Shown piece after piece: positions 5,860 to 13,675 of a DNA stretch of 64,000 nucleotides. The DNA is from an uncultured Candidatus Saccharibacteria bacterium (lineage in GTDB: Bacteria; Patescibacteriota; Minisyncoccia; UBA6257), in assembly GCA_964479005.1 (NCBI GenBank), contig CAYZJA010000001.1, positions 192,001-256,000 of the forward strand. Reading direction: 5' to 3'. Under the pieces are notes generated by a model, which had not been told where the DNA came from, did no database searches, and saw only the letters and a list, made by a program, of their open reading frames with translations. The position numbers were made by a program, and so were the translations under genes. Position 1 is the stretch's first letter. The number at the start of each line of letters is the position of its first letter.

Positions 5860-5895
5860 ATTAACTCTTTACCTTTCTTATTAATTCTTATTAAA

Positions 5896-5925
5896 AAGCA
5901 TCTCTCAATAAGGTGCTTTGTTTCT
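5896..5925 (+). terminator. intrinsic terminator of the ribosomal operon
   Basis: AAGCATC-tctcaataa-GGTGCTT stem (one G-U pair) followed by a TGTTTCTT run. Confidence 0.55.
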
Positions 5926-5953
5926 TGACAAGATGAGATATATTTGTTATATT
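5925..5953 (+). promoter_or_regulatory. sigma70-like promoter (TTGACA-17-TATATT) at the left edge of the inserted island
   Basis: TTGACA at 5925-5930, 17-nt spacer, TATATT at 5948-5953. Confidence 0.55.
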
Positions 5954-6088
5954 AAATACAATAGAACAGTTACTGATATAACCATCGGAAGGTAATAAAA
6001 TTAAATAAATCTTATTTAAAGAAAAACGGGTTTCTACAATTCAAGAAAGTGAGTTAAATGTGAATAATTCTCCTAATCGGGTATAATT

Positions 6089-6316
6089 ATGAATAACAAA
6101 CCCATCATAACTAAGGAGAAAGCACAAAAACTTTCTAAGCTTTTCGATAATCCTACTAATTTTAAACAGGCTTGTATTAAGGTTTTATTAGAAGTACCTG
6201 ATGAAAAACTGGATTTTTACAAAGGGAACTTGACTTTTTCAAAAAATGGTGGTACAATTTTGACGAAAATAGAACAATTTTGCGAACAGAAACAATTTAA
6301 GAGTTTTAAGAATTAA
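6089..6316 (+). CDS. small hypothetical protein, paralogue 1 (75 aa)
   Basis: MNNKPIITKEKAQKLSKLFDNPTNFKQACIKVLLEVPDEKLDFYKGNLTFSKNGG...; about 70% identical to the next ORF; no SD; ATG abuts a TATAAT box. Confidence 0.5.
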   Translation: MNNKPIITKEKAQKLSKLFDNPTNFKQACIKVLLEVPDEKLDFYKGNLTFSKNGGTILTKIEQFCEQKQFKSFKN

Positions 6317-6317
6317 A

Positions 6318-6428
6318 CAATTGAATCATACAATTTAATTAGTTTGCCGAGAAGGTGACGCTAACCGAAGAGGGGCGTCTAGACTATCTCTAAGTTTATT
6401 AGGGGTCGTCTGGACACCCCTTTTTTCA
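6318..6428 (+). repeat. about 110-nt GC-rich structured 3' element, copy 1 of 2 (nested hairpins GGGGCGTC...GACACCCC plus T-run)
   Basis: Near-identical copy at 6662-6772; ends in CCCCTTTTTT (terminator-like). Confidence 0.6.
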
Positions 6429-6653
6429 ATGAATAACAAATTTATTATAAACAAAAGAAAATATCAGGAACTTTCTAAACTCTTTGATAATCCTACTAAT
6501 TTTAAGGAAGCTTGTATAAAACTTCTGTTAGAAATACCAGATAAAAAATTAGATTTTTACAAAGGGAACTTGACTTTTTCAAAAAACGGTGGCATGATTC
6601 TAATGAAAATAGAAGAATTATGTGGGTCAAAACACTTTAATTTTAAAGATTGA
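6429..6653 (+). CDS. small hypothetical protein, paralogue 2 (74 aa)
   Basis: MNNKFIINKRKYQELSKLFDNPTNFKEACIKLLLEIPDKKLDFYKGNLTFSKNGG...; ATG lies 2 nt after the T-run of the preceding hairpin. Confidence 0.5.
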   Translation: MNNKFIINKRKYQELSKLFDNPTNFKEACIKLLLEIPDKKLDFYKGNLTFSKNGGMILMKIEELCGSKHFNFKD

Positions 6654-6661
6654 ACCTACAT

Positions 6662-6772
6662 AGATTAAATCATACAATTTAATTAGTTTGCCGAGAAGGT
6701 GACGCTAACCGAAGAGGGGCGTCTGAACTATCTCTAAGTTTATTAGGGGTCGTCTGGACGCCCCTTTTTTTA
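6662..6772 (+). repeat. about 110-nt structured 3' element, copy 2 (stem GGGGCGTC/GACGCCCC plus T7)
   Basis: Direct repeat of 6318-6428 with a perfect outer stem in this copy. Confidence 0.6.
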
Positions 6773-6938
6773 TTGGAAATTATTGGGAAAAAATATCAAC
6801 TGGATATTGAGAAAAAAATAGTACTTTATAGCACCTTGAAAAATAGCACCTTGAAATAAAAATTTAGTGAAATGAGAGATAAGAAAAAGATAAAAGTATA
6901 AGAAAGAAATGTATTAGAAAGAAAGGAGGTGAAACAAA

Positions 6939-8138
6939 ATGACAAAACGCAAATGGACTAAAGAAGATGACGAATATCTTATCCAACATAGTCCGAAACA
7001 ACGGGGAGATTATGGGAAGTTGGCTATCAAACTTGATAGAACAGTAGAAGCAGTGAGGTATAGGTGTAGAAATCTAAAATTGGAAAATGTCCAAAAGAAT
7101 AGTCAGGCACAGAGAACAGATGTTCCATTAGAAGATAGGATTTACGAATTGCTTTCACATTCCAAAAAACATTCTATTGAGGAGCTAAGTAATACATTTG
7201 ATATTTGTGTAGGAAAGGTTAAAGAAGCATTAGGTGTATTACAGAGCAGACGGATTTTAATAGACGCAATAGATGACAAAATTGTTTTAGGGAATACGAT
7301 TAAACCACCAAAAGCCACTCCAATTCCGATGAAGATTTATCATAATAGGTGGATTAAGTTTGGAGTAATCAGTGATACTCATTTGAACTCCAAATATCAA
7401 AGATTGGATATTTTAAACCACGCTTATAAAATCTTTCAGAAAGAAGGAGTGAAGAATGTTCTACACGCTGGGAATATTATAGATGGTTATGGTAGATTAA
7501 ATCAGTTTGATGTATTTAACATCGGGACAGAAGACCAAATCAACTATTGTATTGAAACCTATCCTTGTAAGCAAGGGATTACTACTCACTTCATTACTGC
7601 TGATGATCACGAGGGATGGATTGTAAGGAGAGAACACATTAACATCGGAGAATTACTTGAACTCAAAGCTAACAAAATGGGTAGAAAAGATTTGAAACAT
7701 TTAGGATATATTGAAAGTGATGTGTTAGTTAAAGTTGGAAGCAAACCTACAAGAATTAGAGTATTCCATCCTGGCGGAGGCACAGCATATTCTCTTTCTT
7801 ATAAACCTCAGAAGATTGTTGAGTCCTTACAGGGTGGAGAAAAACCTGATATATTATTAGTCGGACATTTTCATAAACTCGGACATTTTGAATGGCGGAA
7901 TGTGGAAGTGTTATTGACTGGTTGTATAGAAGACCAAACTCCATTTATGAGAAAGAAACATATTGCTGCTCATCTTGGTTTCTATATTGTGAAAGCCCAT
8001 ATTGCTCCTGACGGTTCTGTCAATAGATTCATTCCAGAAAAGATTAGCTATTACGATAGGAAATATTATACCAGCAGAGCTTGGAAGAAAACTCCTACCA
8101 GTTTTGAAAAACCTATTGAATGGTTTTACAAGTGGTAA
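6939..8138 (+). CDS. Myb/SANT-like HTH + winged-helix + calcineurin-like metallophosphoesterase fusion protein
   Basis: N-terminus W-x2-EDDEYL...G-x-W-x2-IA-x2-L-x-RT-x5-R (Myb-like); phosphoesterase motifs GVISDTHLN, HAGNIIDG, LLVGHFHK; strong SD AAGGAGGTG. Confidence 0.55.
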   Translation: MTKRKWTKEDDEYLIQHSPKQRGDYGKLAIKLDRTVEAVRYRCRNLKLENVQKNSQAQRTDVPLEDRIYELLSHSKKHSIEELSNTFDICVGKVKEALGVLQSRRILIDAIDDKIVLGNTIKPPKATPIPMKIYHNRWIKFGVISDTHLNSKYQRLDILNHAYKIFQKEGVKNVLHAGNIIDGYGRLNQFDVFNIGTEDQINYCIETYPCKQGITTHFITADDHEGWIVRREHINIGELLELKANKMGRKDLKHLGYIESDVLVKVGSKPTRIRVFHPGGGTAYSLSYKPQKIVESLQGGEKPDILLVGHFHKLGHFEWRNVEVLLTGCIEDQTPFMRKKHIAAHLGFYIVKAHIAPDGSVNRFIPEKISYYDRKYYTSRAWKKTPTSFEKPIEWFYKW

Positions 8139-8208
8139 GTATTCGCTCTTAAAACAAAACGGGGTGTCTTAAACACAGACACCCCTAATCTCACAGGAGG
8201 TGATTTTG

Positions 8209-8781
8209 ATGAAAATCTTAATCGATTTGGACGGAACAGTATTTGAGACTTACGACACTTTAGAAGAAAAGTTTGTCCAGAAATTTAATCGCAAAATGAA
8301 CTGGCAGGCGCTGAAAAGCGGCAAGAATCATTACTGGCAAACAGATGGGGGTAAGTGGATAGTCAAGCAATTCAAAGACCCAAACTTTTATTACAATTTA
8401 GAAACTTATCCTGATGCTCCCAAAGTGTTAAGGCAACTTGCCCGAAAACATACAATCATATATTGTACCGCGAGGAGGTTTGGATTAGAAAATGCCACCT
8501 CCTATTCGCTTGGTTATAGAAAACTGCCATTCGGGAAGGTATATTGTATTGGCAGGAGACACATTGCGGGGGTTAAAAAGAGAATTGCCTTAGATGAAAA
8601 AATTGACCTTGCTATTGATGATGAATCAAAAGTGGTAGAAAAACTTTCTGAAGTCTGTCAAGTTTTGATATTTACTCAGAATTATAATAAAGGTTGTAAA
8701 TTCGGTAAGAGAGTAAAATCTTGGAAGGAGGTGCGTCATGAATTACAAGCAAAGAAAAGAAATAATAGAACAAGCAAATAA
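8209..8781 (+). CDS. HAD-superfamily 5'(3')-deoxyribonucleotidase-like protein (NT5C family)
   Basis: MKILIDLDGTV (HAD motif I DxDGT) after SD AGGAGG; phage-type nucleotidase architecture. Confidence 0.55.
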   Translation: MKILIDLDGTVFETYDTLEEKFVQKFNRKMNWQALKSGKNHYWQTDGGKWIVKQFKDPNFYYNLETYPDAPKVLRQLARKHTIIYCTARRFGLENATSYSLGYRKLPFGKVYCIGRRHIAGVKKRIALDEKIDLAIDDESKVVEKLSEVCQVLIFTQNYNKGCKFGKRVKSWKEVRHELQAKKRNNRTSK

Positions 8782-9073
8782 AAGACGTCAATCCTTAATG
8801 CTTAATAAAGGAAAAGAATATTCAAAGGGTAATGCCGATATTAATTATAACTTTAAAGAAGTTGCTGATAGATTAGGCACTCGTCTTGCTGGAACTCCTG
8901 AATATACTTGTTTAGTTTATTTATTCAAACAGATTTTATCAATAGAGAAATGGGCAAGAGATGGAAAGTTAAGTTCAGGGGAAACAATTTTTTCAAGATT
9001 AGATGATGCCAGAAACTACATGGATATTTTAGAAAGTCTGATAAGAGAAAAATCCGATGTACAAGGAAGGTGA
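8738..9073 (+). CDS. hypothetical protein (111 aa)
   Basis: ORF with an SD-like GGAGGTG upstream; overlaps the end of the preceding gene. Confidence 0.35.
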   Translation: MNYKQRKEIIEQANKRRQSLMLNKGKEYSKGNADINYNFKEVADRLGTRLAGTPEYTCLVYLFKQILSIEKWARDGKLSSGETIFSRLDDARNYMDILESLIREKSDVQGR

Positions 9074-9220
9074 TGGTATGGAAATTCAGAATGTTTACTG
9101 TTTGATTAAGATTACTTGTGTTGTGATTATTGTAGTAGGATTTTTCGCAATTGTTCAATTACATCTTAAAAGAGAAAAGCAAAGGATACGGGATTATTAT
9201 AAAAGAGGAGGTGATAAGCG

Positions 9221-10303
9221 ATGAAAAAACTACTCGTAGTATTGATTTGTTTGTTTCTATTAGTTCCAACTGTAATTTCTGCACCAGTTGAAAGATTAAG
9301 TGTAGGAGATTTTACTCGTGCAGTAACGGCTCAGATAGTCTGTAATGTTGATGTGTATAGACGGGATTTAACCTGGTATAAGATTGAGGATGGTCAGGTG
9401 ATCCCTGAATTCAAAGATTTAGATGAAGATGACTGGGCATATCAATGGTTAAAGAAAGGCTGGTTCGTGGTATATGGCGAATGGAATACAGAACCTCGCA
9501 AAGGTAAGATAATGGGTTCTGGTGAAGTATTATATTCCTGGTTATTACCTATGGGGATTAACTTAGAAGGTAAACCTGCTGCAACTTATGTAGGCACAAA
9601 TGCCCATGTGGTAGATGTATTTATGTTAGAAGCCAGTAGGGGTTCAAGAGATAAACCATTAGACCTATATGCCGAGAAGGACACGATGAAGACAATGAAT
9701 ATGCTTAGAACGACTTATAAAGAAGAGGCTAAACCAATAGCCCAGTATTACTTTGATATAGATAACAGTTATATCACTGTAAAGACCGAAGCAGACCAAA
9801 GATTTAGAACTAAAGTTAACATCGTATTGTTTGACATAGCATTAGATTTTGCCTTATTGGAAATGGAAAATGTTTTAGGTCTGCCTTATGTGAGTTTTAG
9901 AGGCACTCCTATACAGGTTGGCGAAACGATTAAAATCTGTGGAGCACCATTAGGATTTGCTTTTAGTAGAGACGAAGGACGAGTAAGTCAAGTTCACTTA
10001 AATCTCGGAACTGATGGAGTGGAAGATTATATTGTATGGGATAACCAAGTGCGTATGGATATTGCTGCTGCACCAGGAAGTTCGGGTAGTGCGATATTTG
10101 ATAAAGATGGCTATATGATTGCCCAATTACACGGAATAATGGTTCACAACGGCAACTATATTCAAGGCGGACAATTAGCAGTAGACCAAGAAGATATAAT
10201 TCGTTTTCTGGTGTTAAATGGTTTTTCGTGGATAGTTCAAAATCCTTATGGAATTTGGGCTAACGCACCATATAATACAGTCCGACCAAAAGTAGGAGAA
10301 TAG
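9221..10303 (+). CDS. secreted trypsin-like (S1/HtrA-type) serine peptidase
   Basis: Signal peptide MKKLLVVLICLFLLVPTVISAP; catalytic-triad-like motifs GTNAHVVD (His), DFALLE (Asp), APGSSGSAIF (Ser). Confidence 0.55.
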   Translation: MKKLLVVLICLFLLVPTVISAPVERLSVGDFTRAVTAQIVCNVDVYRRDLTWYKIEDGQVIPEFKDLDEDDWAYQWLKKGWFVVYGEWNTEPRKGKIMGSGEVLYSWLLPMGINLEGKPAATYVGTNAHVVDVFMLEASRGSRDKPLDLYAEKDTMKTMNMLRTTYKEEAKPIAQYYFDIDNSYITVKTEADQRFRTKVNIVLFDIALDFALLEMENVLGLPYVSFRGTPIQVGETIKICGAPLGFAFSRDEGRVSQVHLNLGTDGVEDYIVWDNQVRMDIAAAPGSSGSAIFDKDGYMIAQLHGIMVHNGNYIQGGQLAVDQEDIIRFLVLNGFSWIVQNPYGIWANAPYNTVRPKVGE

Positions 10304-10536
10304 AAATGAGAATTAACGCAGAGGGGGCTTACCTTGATGGTTTCTAAAAGTCCCCCTCCAGCTGTATGGAGGTGATTAAGATGAGGTGGTTATTACTCAC
10401 ATTTGCAATATCTACTATCATATCTTTTGTAGGATTTGTGAATTGTAAAATGGAAAAGGAGAAAGATTGGTTTATTGCGTTATTGGTTTCTGCAACATTA
10501 GTTGTATTGATGTTTGTTGAATTATCTTAGGGGGAG

Positions 10537-10893
10537 GTGATAGAGATGAAGAAACGAAGAAAAAAGCAAAAAGTTAAGAGAGAAGTTTTAAAGAAAATTG
10601 TTAGAGAGAAAAAGGTTTGTTATTTCTGTGGAACTACCGAGAATATAACCGAGCATCACATAATTTTTAAGTGTTTCATTAAAGGCGGAGAGTTACCAAA
10701 TAACAAGAAAGACATTTGTGATAAGTGCCACAAGCAGTTTCATAAATTAGCAAAACCTGTTGTGGATTTACTCTTATCGGTAATTCAAGGATTACAACCG
10801 AAACCAACTCGGAAAATAGGATTCATAAGAACGAACAACAAAGGAGGCGAAAGAAATGAGAAACATAAAAAGATGTCTATTGTTCTATCCTGA
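10537..10893 (+). CDS. HNH-type zinc-finger nuclease-like protein
   Basis: CYFCG...EHHIIF...CDKCHKQFH (C-x2-C...HH...C-x2-C-H). Confidence 0.5.
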   Translation: MIEMKKRRKKQKVKREVLKKIVREKKVCYFCGTTENITEHHIIFKCFIKGGELPNNKKDICDKCHKQFHKLAKPVVDLLLSVIQGLQPKPTRKIGFIRTNNKGGERNEKHKKMSIVLS

Positions 10894-11080
10894 CATACTG
10901 CCAGCTTTACCTTGTTCTTATCCCGATGAGGATAAATGCGGTAGATATATGAAAATCTATCGTAGAAGTAAGAACAGAAAACAGGCAATAGTTCTTTGCT
11001 CACATCGGGTTAAAGAATTAGGTAGAAAGACTTGTGTCAGAGAACAAATGAAACTCAAAGATTCTACAATTTACAGGTAG
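10856..11080 (+). CDS. Cys-rich mini-protein (74 aa), paralogue of 11436-11630
   Basis: Shared motif PC-x-YPD-x2-KCGR and a later C-x-H/C pair. Confidence 0.35.
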   Translation: MRNIKRCLLFYPDILPALPCSYPDEDKCGRYMKIYRRSKNRKQAIVLCSHRVKELGRKTCVREQMKLKDSTIYR

Positions 11081-11113
11081 AATTCTCAAAGCCATTAGAA
11101 GGAGGGAGAAGAA

Positions 11114-11275
11114 ATGAAAACAAGAATAGTAGTAATTGTAGAAAATGAAATATCTTATTCAGTAAATGATTTTACCAGAATGGAACTCAAAGTTTTCAAG
11201 AAAAGGATTAAGGAACAGATAGAAGAGAAATTGTTAGCAGGTTGGAAAGTGATAAAAATAAAAATTAGGAGGTAA
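11114..11275 (+). CDS. small hypothetical protein (53 aa)
   Basis: ATG 8 nt after GGAGGGAG; MKTRIVVIVENEISYSV... Confidence 0.3.
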   Translation: MKTRIVVIVENEISYSVNDFTRMELKVFKKRIKEQIEEKLLAGWKVIKIKIRR

Positions 11276-11435
11276 GAAGTAATGAGAATAACAAGAGAAG
11301 AGCTCGTAAAACAAGGATGGTCATTTATGAGAAGAATAAGCAGAAATTGCGAAATCTGGACAAGAGAAGAAGGAATGATCCTATGGAATAGAGAAACATT
11401 AAAGGTTTATGTGATATGTTAGGAGGTAAAAAGAA

Positions 11436-11630
11436 ATGAGAGATATTTATCGTTGTCCGATTATGTGGAAACTTTTAAAGAAAGCAACTCCTTGTGCGTA
11501 TCCTGATGTTGAAAAATGTGGAAGAGTTGGTGGCTCTTTCCTTTGTAAATATCGGATAGCTGAAATAGGTAAAAAGAATTGCCTTAAAGAAGTTGCTGAG
11601 TTGAAAGATTTTGCTAAAACTCTCAAATAA
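11436..11630 (+). CDS. Cys-rich mini-protein (64 aa)
   Basis: MRDIYRCPIMWKLLKKATPCAYPDVEKCGRVGGSFLCKYRIAEIGKKNCLKE; SD AGGAGGTAA. Confidence 0.35.
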   Translation: MRDIYRCPIMWKLLKKATPCAYPDVEKCGRVGGSFLCKYRIAEIGKKNCLKEVAELKDFAKTLK

Positions 11631-11794
11631 AAGCCAATGGCAAGAGGGCTATATCTCTTGCCACTCTCTCGGAGGGTATTTGTAGATGTTGTTCAAAATC
11701 ACATAAGTCCCATTTTTCTACAAGTATCTTCCGAGAGGGTAATTTCCTCAAACTAATAAAGGTCTTTAAAAAATAATCATAAATAAATATAAAT

Positions 11795-11995
11795 ATGAAA
11801 TTTTGGAAACCTCTCACAAAATACAGATATAGCAAAGAGAGAAATGAAGTTAAATATCATACTGATTTTATGCTTGATAAAGAAGAAGGATTTGAATTAA
11901 GATTTGCGGACTTTATGTTTAAGGAAAAAGTTCCAAAAGATAAGGTTTGGAAATGTCATCTTGAGCTTGCTGTGGAGGAATTTAATGAAAAATAA
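11795..11995 (+). CDS. hypothetical protein (66 aa)
   Basis: ORF only. Confidence 0.25.
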   Translation: MKFWKPLTKYRYSKERNEVKYHTDFMLDKEEGFELRFADFMFKEKVPKDKVWKCHLELAVEEFNEK

Positions 11996-12103
11996 AACAA
12001 CCAAAAAACATTGTGCGTTACATTATAAATCTAAATAAACTTAGTTATATTATTTTAATAGATTAAAACAATTTTTAAATTTTACGAATTAGAATATGTT
12101 CCA

Positions 12104-12556
12104 ATGTTCCAAATATCCGAAGAAAAATTAAAAAAGATAAGAACGGTAGAAATTGCCATCAATAAGAATTTATTTTTAATTTGTATTGTTATTTCAGTAA
12201 TAACAATGAGTATTTTAGGAATAGAATTTTTTAGCCATAGAATCTTTCCTTCTTCTAAAATAAGTTTTTTTTACATTGGGATTTTGTTGATTTATTCTAT
12301 TCATAAGGAAATGTTGAGATGGGTAGGAGCAAAAAGAATAGAAAGGCAAGGTGAGTGGTTTGTTTATTTTTGGATCGGATTTACTATCATCTTATATGTT
12401 ATTAATTTCTCTACAAAAGGTTATTTTAATTATCCTTTAGGAAATACATCATCGGAATCGCTTAATCAAATTGCCGTTACTACTTTAGAAATCTGCGGCA
12501 TTTTTATTGTTTCTAGATTATCTAAGATGGCAAAGATTATTTTGGAAAAAAGATAA
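12104..12556 (+). CDS. hypothetical integral membrane protein (4 predicted TM)
   Basis: Hydrophobic segments throughout. Confidence 0.4.
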   Translation: MFQISEEKLKKIRTVEIAINKNLFLICIVISVITMSILGIEFFSHRIFPSSKISFFYIGILLIYSIHKEMLRWVGAKRIERQGEWFVYFWIGFTIILYVINFSTKGYFNYPLGNTSSESLNQIAVTTLEICGIFIVSRLSKMAKIILEKR

Positions 12557-12624
12557 TAATAATATTCTAAGATAGAACATTTTTTGTATTTTGAAAATTA
12601 AAAAGAGAGGAGGTGGACAATTTG

Positions 12625-13258
12625 ATGAAATTATTAAGAGTTTTTTTTGTCAGCTTTTGGGAAAGGAATTATAACTTTGGTTCCAATCTTAATTATTTTC
12701 TGGTTACTTGGACTTTTTTTGGGAGAAAATATGATAACTATGCGAGATATCATATTTTCTATTTTAAGGGGATTACTTCCTAGGGGGATGGTAGTGCAAG
12801 AGTGGATGATTGGTTTAGGATTGATTTTAACTATTCTGTTTGTCGGTTTAATTTCTTCATCAATTTTCAAAAGAATCTACGCCTGTACAGGTAGATTAAT
12901 AGGTAAATTAATCCAAAAATCATTAACAGGGAAAATAAAAGAACAATATCAGGATCAGGGTATGGTGATATTTGAGTTTAGGGAAGGAATATGGATTCCA
13001 GGAATTATAGTTGGATATATAGCAGGAAGTGAAAAACTTAAGGGTGGAAAATTTTTGAGAATCTTTATTCCCAATGTACCCATACCTTTAACTGGATTTT
13101 CACCTATTTTTGTGCAAGAAAGCAAAGTGATACATATCGATCTTCCGGTTGATGAGGTACTTAATATGTATATTTCAGCTGGGATATTAGGCCCTAAAAG
13201 ACTCCCAGAAATAGTCAGGGAATTAGAGAAAAGAGAAATAATATCAAAAATAGACTAG
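12625..13258 (+). CDS. DUF502-family membrane protein, interrupted by a +1/-1 frame change in a T8 homopolymer (12641-12648)
   Basis: SD AGGAGGTGG is 9 nt upstream of ATG 12625 (frame 0), which reads MKLLRVFF... The long DUF502 body (P-x-P-x-TG motif FIPNVPIPLTGFSPIFV) is in frame +1 from 12647. One extra T would fuse them into MKLLRVFFLSAFGKG..., a typical DUF502 N-terminus. Confidence 0.55.
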
Positions 13259-13276
13259 TAGAGACTTTTAAAGGCG

Positions 13277-13322
13277 GTCTCAATATTTATCTGAGAACCG
13301 CCCTTTTTTTTGGTATAAGAAA
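13277..13322 (+). terminator. intrinsic terminator after the DUF502 gene
   Basis: GGCGGTCTC...GAGAACCGCC stem followed by T8. Confidence 0.6.
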
Positions 13323-13432
13323 ACTCTAATCTATACCAGGGATGGATTGACTAACAAGATTATTAGTGGTATAATTGGATTACTCTACTTAGTACTCTTG
13401 AAAATTTTAAAAAAAGGAGGAAAAAGAAAAAG

Positions 13433-13675
13433 ATGAAAAGGATATTATTTGAAAAGAACGCTAAAAGAATTACAAAGGCAGTAGCAGAATTTGTTGCAGA
13501 AGAATTTAAGCCTTTGAGGGAAGGGGATAAGATAAAAAAGATAGGAGAGCTGTTAAAGGGTTTTGAAGACACAAAAAAAATAAATGGAAATTTTTTTGTT
13601 GTTCTTCGATTACCTGAAGGGACAGAAGCAGCAATTGACTTACAAGGAAGACTTTATGACTTAAATGAAATTTGA
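13433..13675 (+). CDS. hypothetical protein (80 aa)
   Basis: SD AAGGAGG upstream. Confidence 0.35.
   Translation: MKRILFEKNAKRITKAVAEFVAEEFKPLREGDKIKKIGELLKGFEDTKKINGNFFVVLRLPEGTEAAIDLQGRLYDLNEI

Follow-up and report, generated by a model that had tools for sequence, protein, structure and literature searches.

The window analysed here, a 64,000-nucleotide (nt) stretch of DNA from an uncultured Candidatus Saccharibacteria bacterium (positions 192,001 to 256,000 of contig CAYZJA010000001.1, assembly GCA_964479005.1), carries an intact gene (positions 6939–8138) whose product has three domains: a Myb/homeodomain-like helix-turn-helix (HTH), a winged helix-turn-helix (wHTH), and a calcineurin-like metallophosphoesterase (MPE) domain. 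The gene is of phage origin and lies as cargo in an insertion. The MPE domain is specifically DP1-like, its closest structural relative being the proofreading subunit of archaeal DNA polymerase D (PolD), and its active site is under purifying selection. Its most likely function is that of a metal-dependent nuclease tethered to DNA and serving phage DNA metabolism, a reading that we hold with moderate confidence. An earlier note on this DNA had already proposed a DNA-targeted phosphoesterase or nuclease, and this stays the best reading, the C-terminal half being an MPE domain and DNA its probable substrate. The gene and its parts are as follows:

6939 to 8138, + strand: HTH–wHTH–MPE gene, an open reading frame (ORF) of 399 amino acids (aa)
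6923 to 6931, + strand: Shine-Dalgarno sequence AAGGAGGTG, strong as read from the sequence, 7 nt 5' of the ATG
6939 to 7088, + strand: Myb/homeodomain-like three-helix DNA-binding domain, residues 1–50, variable in the family
7125 to 7292, + strand: winged helix-turn-helix, probably of the HTH_11 / BirA-NiaR type, residues 63–118, in essentially all family members
7347 to 8072, + strand: calcineurin-like MPE domain, DP1-like, residues 137–378

Domain architecture and active site

An AlphaFold2 model of the 399-aa protein, built on 109 homologues (mean predicted local distance difference test score 89.6), comprises a three-helix bundle (residues 8–45), a winged helix (64–117), and an alpha/beta sandwich (137–378). 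The Pfam model Metallophos_2 (PF12850) matches residues 140–332 (E 7e-7; 29.8 bits, exceeding the cutoff of 27 bits) and is also matched by 86 of the 109 family members; PF00149 scores slightly short of its cutoff (20.2 vs. 21.5 bits). The protein is further matched by phrog_7339, annotated as 'DNA repair exonuclease' (E 7e-6). The three strings by which the earlier note had recognised the MPE domain (GVISDTHLN, HAGNIIDG, and LLVGHFHK) all occur in the translation, and to these are added motifs III (ADDHEGW, residues 221–227) and IV (FHPGGG, 276–281), which that note had missed.

The canonical MPE motif set (DxH, GD(x2)D, GNH[D/E], H, and GHxH) comprises seven metal ligands and a general-acid His. 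The corresponding motifs here are D146-x-H148 (I), G178-N179 (II), D222-D223-H224-E225 (III), H277 (IV), and H310-x-H312 (V), and in the model each of them follows a beta-strand of the sandwich fold, as in MPEs generally. Residues D146, N179, H224, E225, H277, H310, and H312 are conserved in all 109 family members, which share only ~40% identity; H148 is kept in 107 of them and D223 in 104. All metal-ligand positions are thus occupied, and invariant but for the few exceptions just counted, although motifs II and III are non-canonical, with GN in place of GD and DDHE in place of GNH[D/E]. Across the family, column conservation is 0.67 in the MPE domain vs. 0.29–0.41 in the HTH parts. N179 and D223 represent a strictly conserved, reciprocal Asn/Asp ligand swap relative to canonical MPEs, in which the catalytic His is kept. 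The reciprocity and strict conservation of this swap, along with the retained general-acid His, favour an active if unusual metal centre over an inactive scaffold.

In NCBIfam, only DP1 models match significantly (three, the best at E 1e-9); the one other entry is a weak YfcE match (E 0.017). DP1 chains are likewise recovered in a PDB profile search with the protein. The best DP1 model scores 37.8 bits vs. an equivalog cutoff of 445 bits; the protein is not a DP1, lacking both the oligonucleotide/oligosaccharide-binding (OB) fold and a DP2 partner.

The N-terminal domain has a three-helix homeodomain-like fold in which helices 2 and 3 form the HTH. The Myb/SANT resemblance that had been read from its sequence agrees with this fold but is sub-threshold in Pfam, where the match to Myb_DNA-binding (PF00249; residues 3–47; E 0.008) reaches 16.7 bits, or 21.0 bits for the isolated domain, against a cutoff of 24.4 bits. 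Among 32 related N-termini, Myb is the commonest match (10/32 at E < 0.1; best 3e-5), every match being sub-threshold. Of the three-Trp core typical of Myb, only W6 is present; the second position is Y25 (invariant in alignment A3) and the third is non-aromatic (R42/C43). Compared with the Myb string given in the earlier note, the actual text is G-D-Y-G-K-L-A-I-K-L-D-R-T, with Tyr25 rather than Trp and 'LA' rather than 'IA'. The domain is therefore fairly described as a 'Myb/homeodomain-like HTH'; membership of Myb/SANT proper is not established. The second HTH-like segment noted previously is the winged helix of the model, the top structural matches of which are NiaR and PF0095, with BirA among the profile matches; HTH_41 matches residues 78–104 below its cutoff (E 0.009), and phrog_323 ('transcriptional regulator') matches residues 1–94.

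The fusion itself, previously regarded as unusual, proves to be the rule: the wHTH–MPE core is the norm throughout a family of ~2,800 clusters, with the wHTH always present (gap fraction 0.02), and only the Myb-like extension varies. The first 50 residues are poorly conserved, their place being taken in some members by C2H2 fingers, zinc ribbons, or other HTHs.

The insertion and the virus-borne family

The position of the gene is best seen by comparison with a close relative (L152; RpoA 95% identical), in which rpsI and the macA-like gene lie 0.8 kb apart vs. 8.0 kb in the window. Homology to L152 ends at window position 5863 and starts again at 13448, the empty site being at 12415–12672 of L152; thus, the gene sits in a 7.6-kb insertion. 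The island and the gene adjoining that for the MPE protein are:

5864 to 13447, + strand: phage-derived cryptic island of 7.6 kb, between rpsI and the macA-like gene, absent from the close relative L152
8200 to 8781, + strand: NT5C-type 5'-deoxyribonucleotidase gene, directly downstream of the MPE gene (Pfam NT5C E 1.6e-14; phrog_420/phrog_2643)

Pfam and PHROG searches identify a phage-typical cargo: the MPE gene, NT5C, an ORF matching phrog_6802, a trypsin-like protease, an HNH endonuclease, and small ORFs. The same searches found no integrase or structural genes in the island, which we therefore regard as a cryptic remnant. It is a rare, sharply bounded phage-derived insert in a ~0.55-Mb genome of the Candidate Phyla Radiation (CPR). 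This genome is of Pacebacteria type, its RpoA having 93% identity to the RpoA of a metagenome-assembled 'Candidatus Pacebacteria' genome. Guanine plus cytosine (GC) content is 0.35–0.365 over 7–11 kb vs. 0.29–0.32 in the flanks, and Rfam gave nothing credible between 5.8 and 14 kb. The island has neither an integrase nor a tRNA, and no obvious direct repeats flank it. The HNH endonuclease gene (10537–10893) lies near two paralogous small Cys-rich ORFs (10856–11080 and 11436–11630; 74 and 64 aa; 'C..YPD..KCGR') that match no known family. A Trypsin_2-type protease gene accompanies the MPE gene both in the window (9221–10303) and in an Atribacterota-associated phage contig (L014/L015, 20804–21116), which may be coincidence or shared phage cargo. 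A GGAGGTGA-type Shine-Dalgarno motif also precedes other ORFs of the island (duplication families D3 and D5).

The protein belongs to a large, virus-borne family. A word-indexed search returned 614 homologues, and a full profile search 2,796 clusters at 50% identity, 1,165 of them at E 1e-30 or better. In IMG/VR, 417 confirmed viral contigs were retrieved by two peptide patterns alone, vs. only 46 loci in ~185,000 species-representative genomes, scattered across many bacterial phyla as well as DPANN, Asgard, and Bathyarchaeia metagenome-assembled genomes (MAGs). These counts, together with the phage neighbourhoods and the empty site, indicate a phage origin for the gene. The viruses that carry the family infect hosts among Bacteroidota, Acidobacteriota, and CPR bacteria, as well as DPANN, Asgard, and halophilic archaea. 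Contigs with family members have been binned to MAGs of Bathyarchaeia, Heimdallarchaeota, Nanoarchaeota, and Woesearchaeota (L106, L109, L118, L131, and L138). Among 50,697 deposited phage genomes, tblastn found one distant relative only, ORF43 of Halorubrum virus BLv36 (31% identity); this cultured haloarchaeal tailed virus (L011) is the only tractable system found, and places the family in both bacterial and archaeal viruses. The crAss-like phage 'MPP' described previously (PMC7886860) probably belongs to another family, given that single distant relative among deposited phages, yet a crAss-like contig (L007) does carry the gene.

Inserts of at least 100 aa, one to three in each protein, were found in 33 of 147 representatives (~22%), and occupy at least seven distinct sites. 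All of these sites are at conserved MPE motifs, near query residues 148–150, 222–236, 281–288, 296, 307–308, 316–319, and 331–337. Of eight insert-bearing representatives tested, six had confirmed Hint, Intein_splicing, and LAGLIDADG domains. The intein-rich representatives lie within P0121–P0267 (e.g., P0125, P0153, and P0200), and some of the inserts have LAGLIDADG homing-endonuclease domains. In mycobacteriophages, inteins adjoin conserved, often invariant residues of DNA-modification and nucleotide-metabolism proteins, including the gp47-type MPE (PMC5050341). By this pattern, the inteins at the MPE motifs lend indirect support to an essential active site and to the placement of the protein in the DNA-modification/nucleotide-metabolism class. 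Among the phage Mre11/DP1-like MPEs, the family thus stands apart in its fused wHTH (to which a Myb-like HTH is added here), its closeness to DP1, the conserved Asn/Asp ligand swap, and a heavy intein load.

All inspected family neighbourhoods are phage or prophage, and include a crAss-like phage (L007), a Bacteroidota prophage in which the gene lies beside an integrase, and positions near a terminase gene, after NinG, and upstream of a RecT/YqaJ/DnaB block; at one locus, the MPE gene begins one nucleotide past the end of PolA, downstream of PrimPol. Neighbours were clustered over 99 non-redundant loci, and the recurrent ones are DNA methylase, lysozymes (adjoining in 12 loci), MazG-like dGTP_diPhyd_N (at +1 to +4 in 11 loci), DUF4406 (4 loci), tyrosine integrases (downstream in 6 loci), and RecA. 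The closest orthologues (79% identical), on phage-like contigs, have the same order as the window: small ORF, MPE, NT5C, small ORFs, and HNH. The MPE–NT5C order is kept in L020–L022, and in L020 the block comes after genes for endonuclease VII and a lysin. The L020 orthologue is preceded by a 74-aa ORF with no homology to the 75-aa ORFs that precede the MPE gene in the window, the gene order being kept but not the sequence.

The upstream region

The intergenic region 5' of the MPE gene contains two elements:

6711 to 6775, + strand: GC-rich long hairpin (6711–6769) and T-run, intrinsic-terminator-like, separating the MPE unit from the upstream 75-aa ORFs
6828 to 6841 and 6843 to 6856, + strand: exact tandem 14-mer ATAGCACCTTGAAA in two copies (period 15), a candidate promoter element or regulator-binding site

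The predicted RNA fold of 6654–6790 (-43.7 kcal/mol; z = -3.8) was equalled by none of 200 shuffles. With this terminator-like hairpin upstream, the gene would need its own promoter within 6775–6938, which is where the repeats fall. The tandem array ends 82 nt 5' of the ATG, is preceded by a degenerate third copy, ATAGTACTTTAT (6818–6829), and is overlapped by a sigma-70-like match (TTGAAA-16-AAAAAT, 6836–6863). The direct repeat reported earlier as a 12-mer is real and tandem, and slightly longer than was stated. As a 12-mer it could have been a chance match, since a near-tandem exact 12-mer is found in 31% of Markov-simulated windows, which is unremarkable; chance is unlikely for the actual 14-mer, which is unusual (2.3%). 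The 12-mer is absent from the rest of the 64-kb window, even with one mismatch allowed.

The interpretation of the repeat as an operator of this gene is not supported by comparison with orthologues. The 79% identical orthologue loci have one degenerate copy only, and in the 80% identical orthologue (L150) the gene lies 29 nt after the previous ORF, with no tandem repeat. Single near-copies (AGCACCTTAAAC and AGTACCTTAAAA) instead occur in L020 and L150, in each case at or just past the stop codon of one of several different genes. As the tandem array is not conserved and near-copies are distributed across phage spacers, the motif, in the generalised form ATAGCACCTT[GA]AA, is more likely a recurrent intergenic signal of the phage lineage (a promoter element or regulator site) than a private operator. 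Near-copies of the form atAGCACCTTAAAc/a are at L020 5750, 6161, and 8412 and at L150 7537, at or overlapping the stop codons of unrelated ORFs; those in L020 flank long hairpins (z = -4.0), an arrangement that resembles a modular intergenic element of the phage lineage.

Just upstream of the MPE gene in the window, 6089–6775 is a tandem duplication of ~344-nt units, each consisting of a 75-aa ORF (DNA 78% identical) and a 112-nt non-coding tail (95% identical). The duplicated tail (family D2) is better conserved than the ORF and folds as a strong hairpin followed by a T-run. The 75-aa ORFs have no Pfam or PHROG match, and the tail has no credible match in Rfam (one at E 0.51, far under the gathering score).

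Proposed function and comparison with known systems

In the function that we favour, the two N-terminal modules (Myb/homeodomain-like and HTH_11-like winged helix) would hold the enzyme on DNA, and the DP1/Mre11-like MPE domain would hydrolyse DNA phosphodiester bonds, as an exo- or endonuclease with a binuclear metal centre. His224 would serve as the general acid, with D146, H148, N179, D223, H277, H310, and H312 as metal ligands. In its native phage, the enzyme may have processed ends in replication or recombination, or degraded host DNA to feed nucleotide salvage; the latter would fit the frequent presence of NT5C, MazG-like, and NDT-like genes after the MPE gene. The adjoining NT5C, and the dGTP_diPhyd_N, DUF4406, DNA methylase, RecA, and PolA neighbours, tie the family to DNA and nucleotide metabolism. 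By analogy, support for a nuclease reading of phage Mre11/DP1-like MPEs also comes from two phage proteins, Bxb1 gp47 and T5 A1, which are compared below.

Several observations weigh against this function. Many members of the family lie beside lysis, tail, or integrase genes rather than in replication modules; no obligate partner gene was found among the 99 loci, where the commonest neighbour family occurs in 8, and no recurrent ATPase of the Rad50/SbcC/gp46 type, the partner of Mre11/SbcD, was found there either. The island itself lacks most phage functions. Both the OB-fold and the DP2 partner of DP1 are missing from this family, and gp47 and T5 A1 have no detectable sequence similarity to it. 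N179 stands where the metal-bridging Asp is usual, such that metal binding and activity may be altered, and the same Asn/Asp residue pair is found in Vps29, which is catalytically weak or inactive. The top Pfam match is to a model of the YfcE/MJ0936 type (Metallophos_2), and enzymes of that type act on small phosphodiesters; more broadly, the MPE superfamily takes in nucleotide phosphodiesterases, protein phosphatases, and non-catalytic scaffolds.

Other functions are accordingly to be considered, of which a regulatory one is possible but unlikely: the protein would be an early/late switch or an autorepressor acting on the ATAGCACCTTGAAA repeats, in which the MPE domain senses or hydrolyses a small nucleotide, as in an enzyme–repressor hybrid of the BirA/NiaR kind. 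The NiaR, PF0095, and BirA matches of the wHTH are consistent with such a hybrid, as are the 'transcriptional regulator' match over residues 1–94 and the location of the tandem repeat in the gene's own promoter interval, after a terminator and overlapping a sigma-70-like match. The motif recurs in spacers of related phages, as the signal of a regulon would, and at one locus (L016) the gene sits after NinG, a position that in lambdoid phages encodes late regulators. A regulator, however, accords poorly with a family whose strong conservation is in the MPE domain rather than in the HTH (0.67 vs. 0.29–0.41) and in which inteins target the MPE active site; moreover, 79–80% identical orthologues lack the tandem repeat, and the 29-nt spacer of the L150 gene leaves no separate promoter region. 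It is improbable that the protein is an accessory or defence ('moron') nuclease of benefit to the lysogen or host, which would degrade foreign DNA or exclude superinfecting phages, even though this would explain the intact copy in the decayed island of a streamlined CPR genome. The gene forms its own terminator-bounded unit in the window, the protein is 100% identical in contigs from five samples, and the rest of the island is devoid of structural genes. In several temperate phages, it has lysis or tail genes on one side and an integrase in the opposite orientation on the other, as is typical of morons, and the downstream tyrosine integrases (6 loci) and adjoining lysozymes (12/99) are in keeping with this. 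Yet PADLOC-DB 2.0 returned no defence family at E <= 1, there is no recurring partner or sensor gene among the loci, and the family is also found in virulent-looking genomes (the crAss-like phage and the locus beside PolA).

A phosphodiesterase for small molecules, such as cyclic nucleotide immune signals (as an anti-defence function), Ap4A, or other nucleotides, with the HTHs serving in regulation or protein contacts, we consider a shade less probable again. The YfcE/MJ0936-type Pfam model and the nucleotide-metabolism genes nearby would suit it, but two DNA-binding modules are hard to explain in a soluble nucleotide hydrolase, and we know of no anti-defence phosphodiesterase with an MPE fold and HTH fusions. 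Least credible, to a degree that we all but discount it, is an inactive scaffold comparable to Vps29 or the eukaryotic polymerase B-subunits, which would have lost catalysis with the replacement of the motif II Asp by Asn, leaving it only the role of an adaptor bound to DNA. Against this, His224 is invariant, as are the six other ligand positions, and the reciprocal motif III change from Asn to Asp keeps the ligand set and the net charge, whereas several ligands are typically missing from inactive homologues; that inteins home to the MPE motifs also implies that these motifs are functionally indispensable.

A bolder version of the nuclease function is speculative and, in our estimation, improbable. 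By this account, the wHTH–MPE family would be the closest free-standing relative of DP1 and the B-subunits, an example of the kind of mobile-element nuclease that gave rise to the PolD proofreader by recruitment; it would be site-directed, with the HTHs reading lineage-specific intergenic motifs such as ATAGCACCTTGAAA, and would both cut DNA and regulate its own module, the Asn/Asp-swapped centre being an undescribed active variant of the MPE site. If the protein is a DNA-targeted nuclease, this would define a function common in environmental phages, clarify the evolutionary surroundings of DP1 and the eukaryotic B-subunits, and document an unusual, strictly conserved form of the binuclear metal site. 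The near-absence of the family from sequenced isolate phages (1/50,697 records) accounts for its having escaped study.

Among known systems, the protein most resembles archaeal PolD DP1 and the eukaryotic Pol alpha/delta/epsilon B-subunits, with which it shares the five-motif binuclear active-site layout and an N-terminal helical module before the phosphodiesterase domain. The DP1 ligands are D363, H365, D407, N453, H500, H563, and H565, with H451 as proton donor (PMC4996933); in this family, by contrast, the motif II Asp is Asn and the motif III Asn is Asp, and sequence identity is only 16%. The linker from the wHTH to the first MPE strand is only ~18 residues (119–136), with no OB-like beta-barrel in the model. 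No neighbourhood has a DP2-like gene, and PolA adjoins in only ~3 of the 99 loci; whereas DP1 belongs to the archaeal replisome, this family is phage- or prophage-borne. Unlike Mre11/SbcD (including phage T4 gp47 and T5 D13), the protein has no detected capping domain, and it has HTH domains where the partner-binding C-terminus would be; a weak AAA_23 protein is encoded three genes from the MPE gene in a single phage (L014/L015). A two-component system like Mre11–Rad50 or DP1–DP2 was rejected, there being no obligate partner among the neighbours of the 99 loci. With fusions of the BirA/NiaR type, the protein has in common an N-terminal winged helix, here HTH_11-like, joined to an enzymatic or ligand-binding domain, but its C-terminal MPE domain is unrelated to biotin ligase or the 3H domain.

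Two phage MPEs offer parallels in function, which are analogies and not homology. Bxb1 gp47 (L5 gp54 family) is a calcineurin-like MPE that is needed for phage DNA replication and has limited exonuclease activity in vitro (PMC11795197); it is encoded among replication genes, is also the directionality factor of a serine integrase, and has Mre11 and DP1 as its closest structures. It is similarly phage-encoded, and its family likewise has inteins beside an invariant MPE motif (PMC5050341). At 255 aa, however, gp47 has no HTH domains, and no serine integrase was found in the island. T5 A1 is a predicted metallophosphatase that, according to a preprint (bioRxiv 10.64898/2026.04.02.716235), is mostly limited to Demerecviridae. 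Host DNA degradation requires A1 and needs no other phage protein; A1 is described there as structurally similar to double-strand break repair and proofreading nucleases, and its gene is accompanied by those for the DNA-binding protein A2, the deoxynucleoside monophosphate phosphatase Dmp, and the HNH nuclease HegG. The island is comparable to this pre-early module in having an MPE, a fused DNA-binding module, an adjoining 5'-deoxyribonucleotidase, and a nearby HNH gene. Alignment with the family profile detected no similarity for gp47 (hhalign probability 0.3%) or for T5 A1 (hhalign probability 0.07%; BLASTP E 0.93), each comparison being of low sensitivity because it used a single target sequence. 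T5 A1 is unrecognised by Pfam, and T5 Dmp and the NT5C of the island have nothing in common beyond the DxDGT motif of the haloacid dehalogenase superfamily. Phage MPEs related to Mre11 and DP1 have only lately been tied to functions, in replication and excision for Bxb1 gp47 and in host DNA destruction for T5 A1; the present family is much larger and wider in its hosts than either, is the most similar of these to the PolD proofreader, and alone among them has built-in DNA-binding domains.

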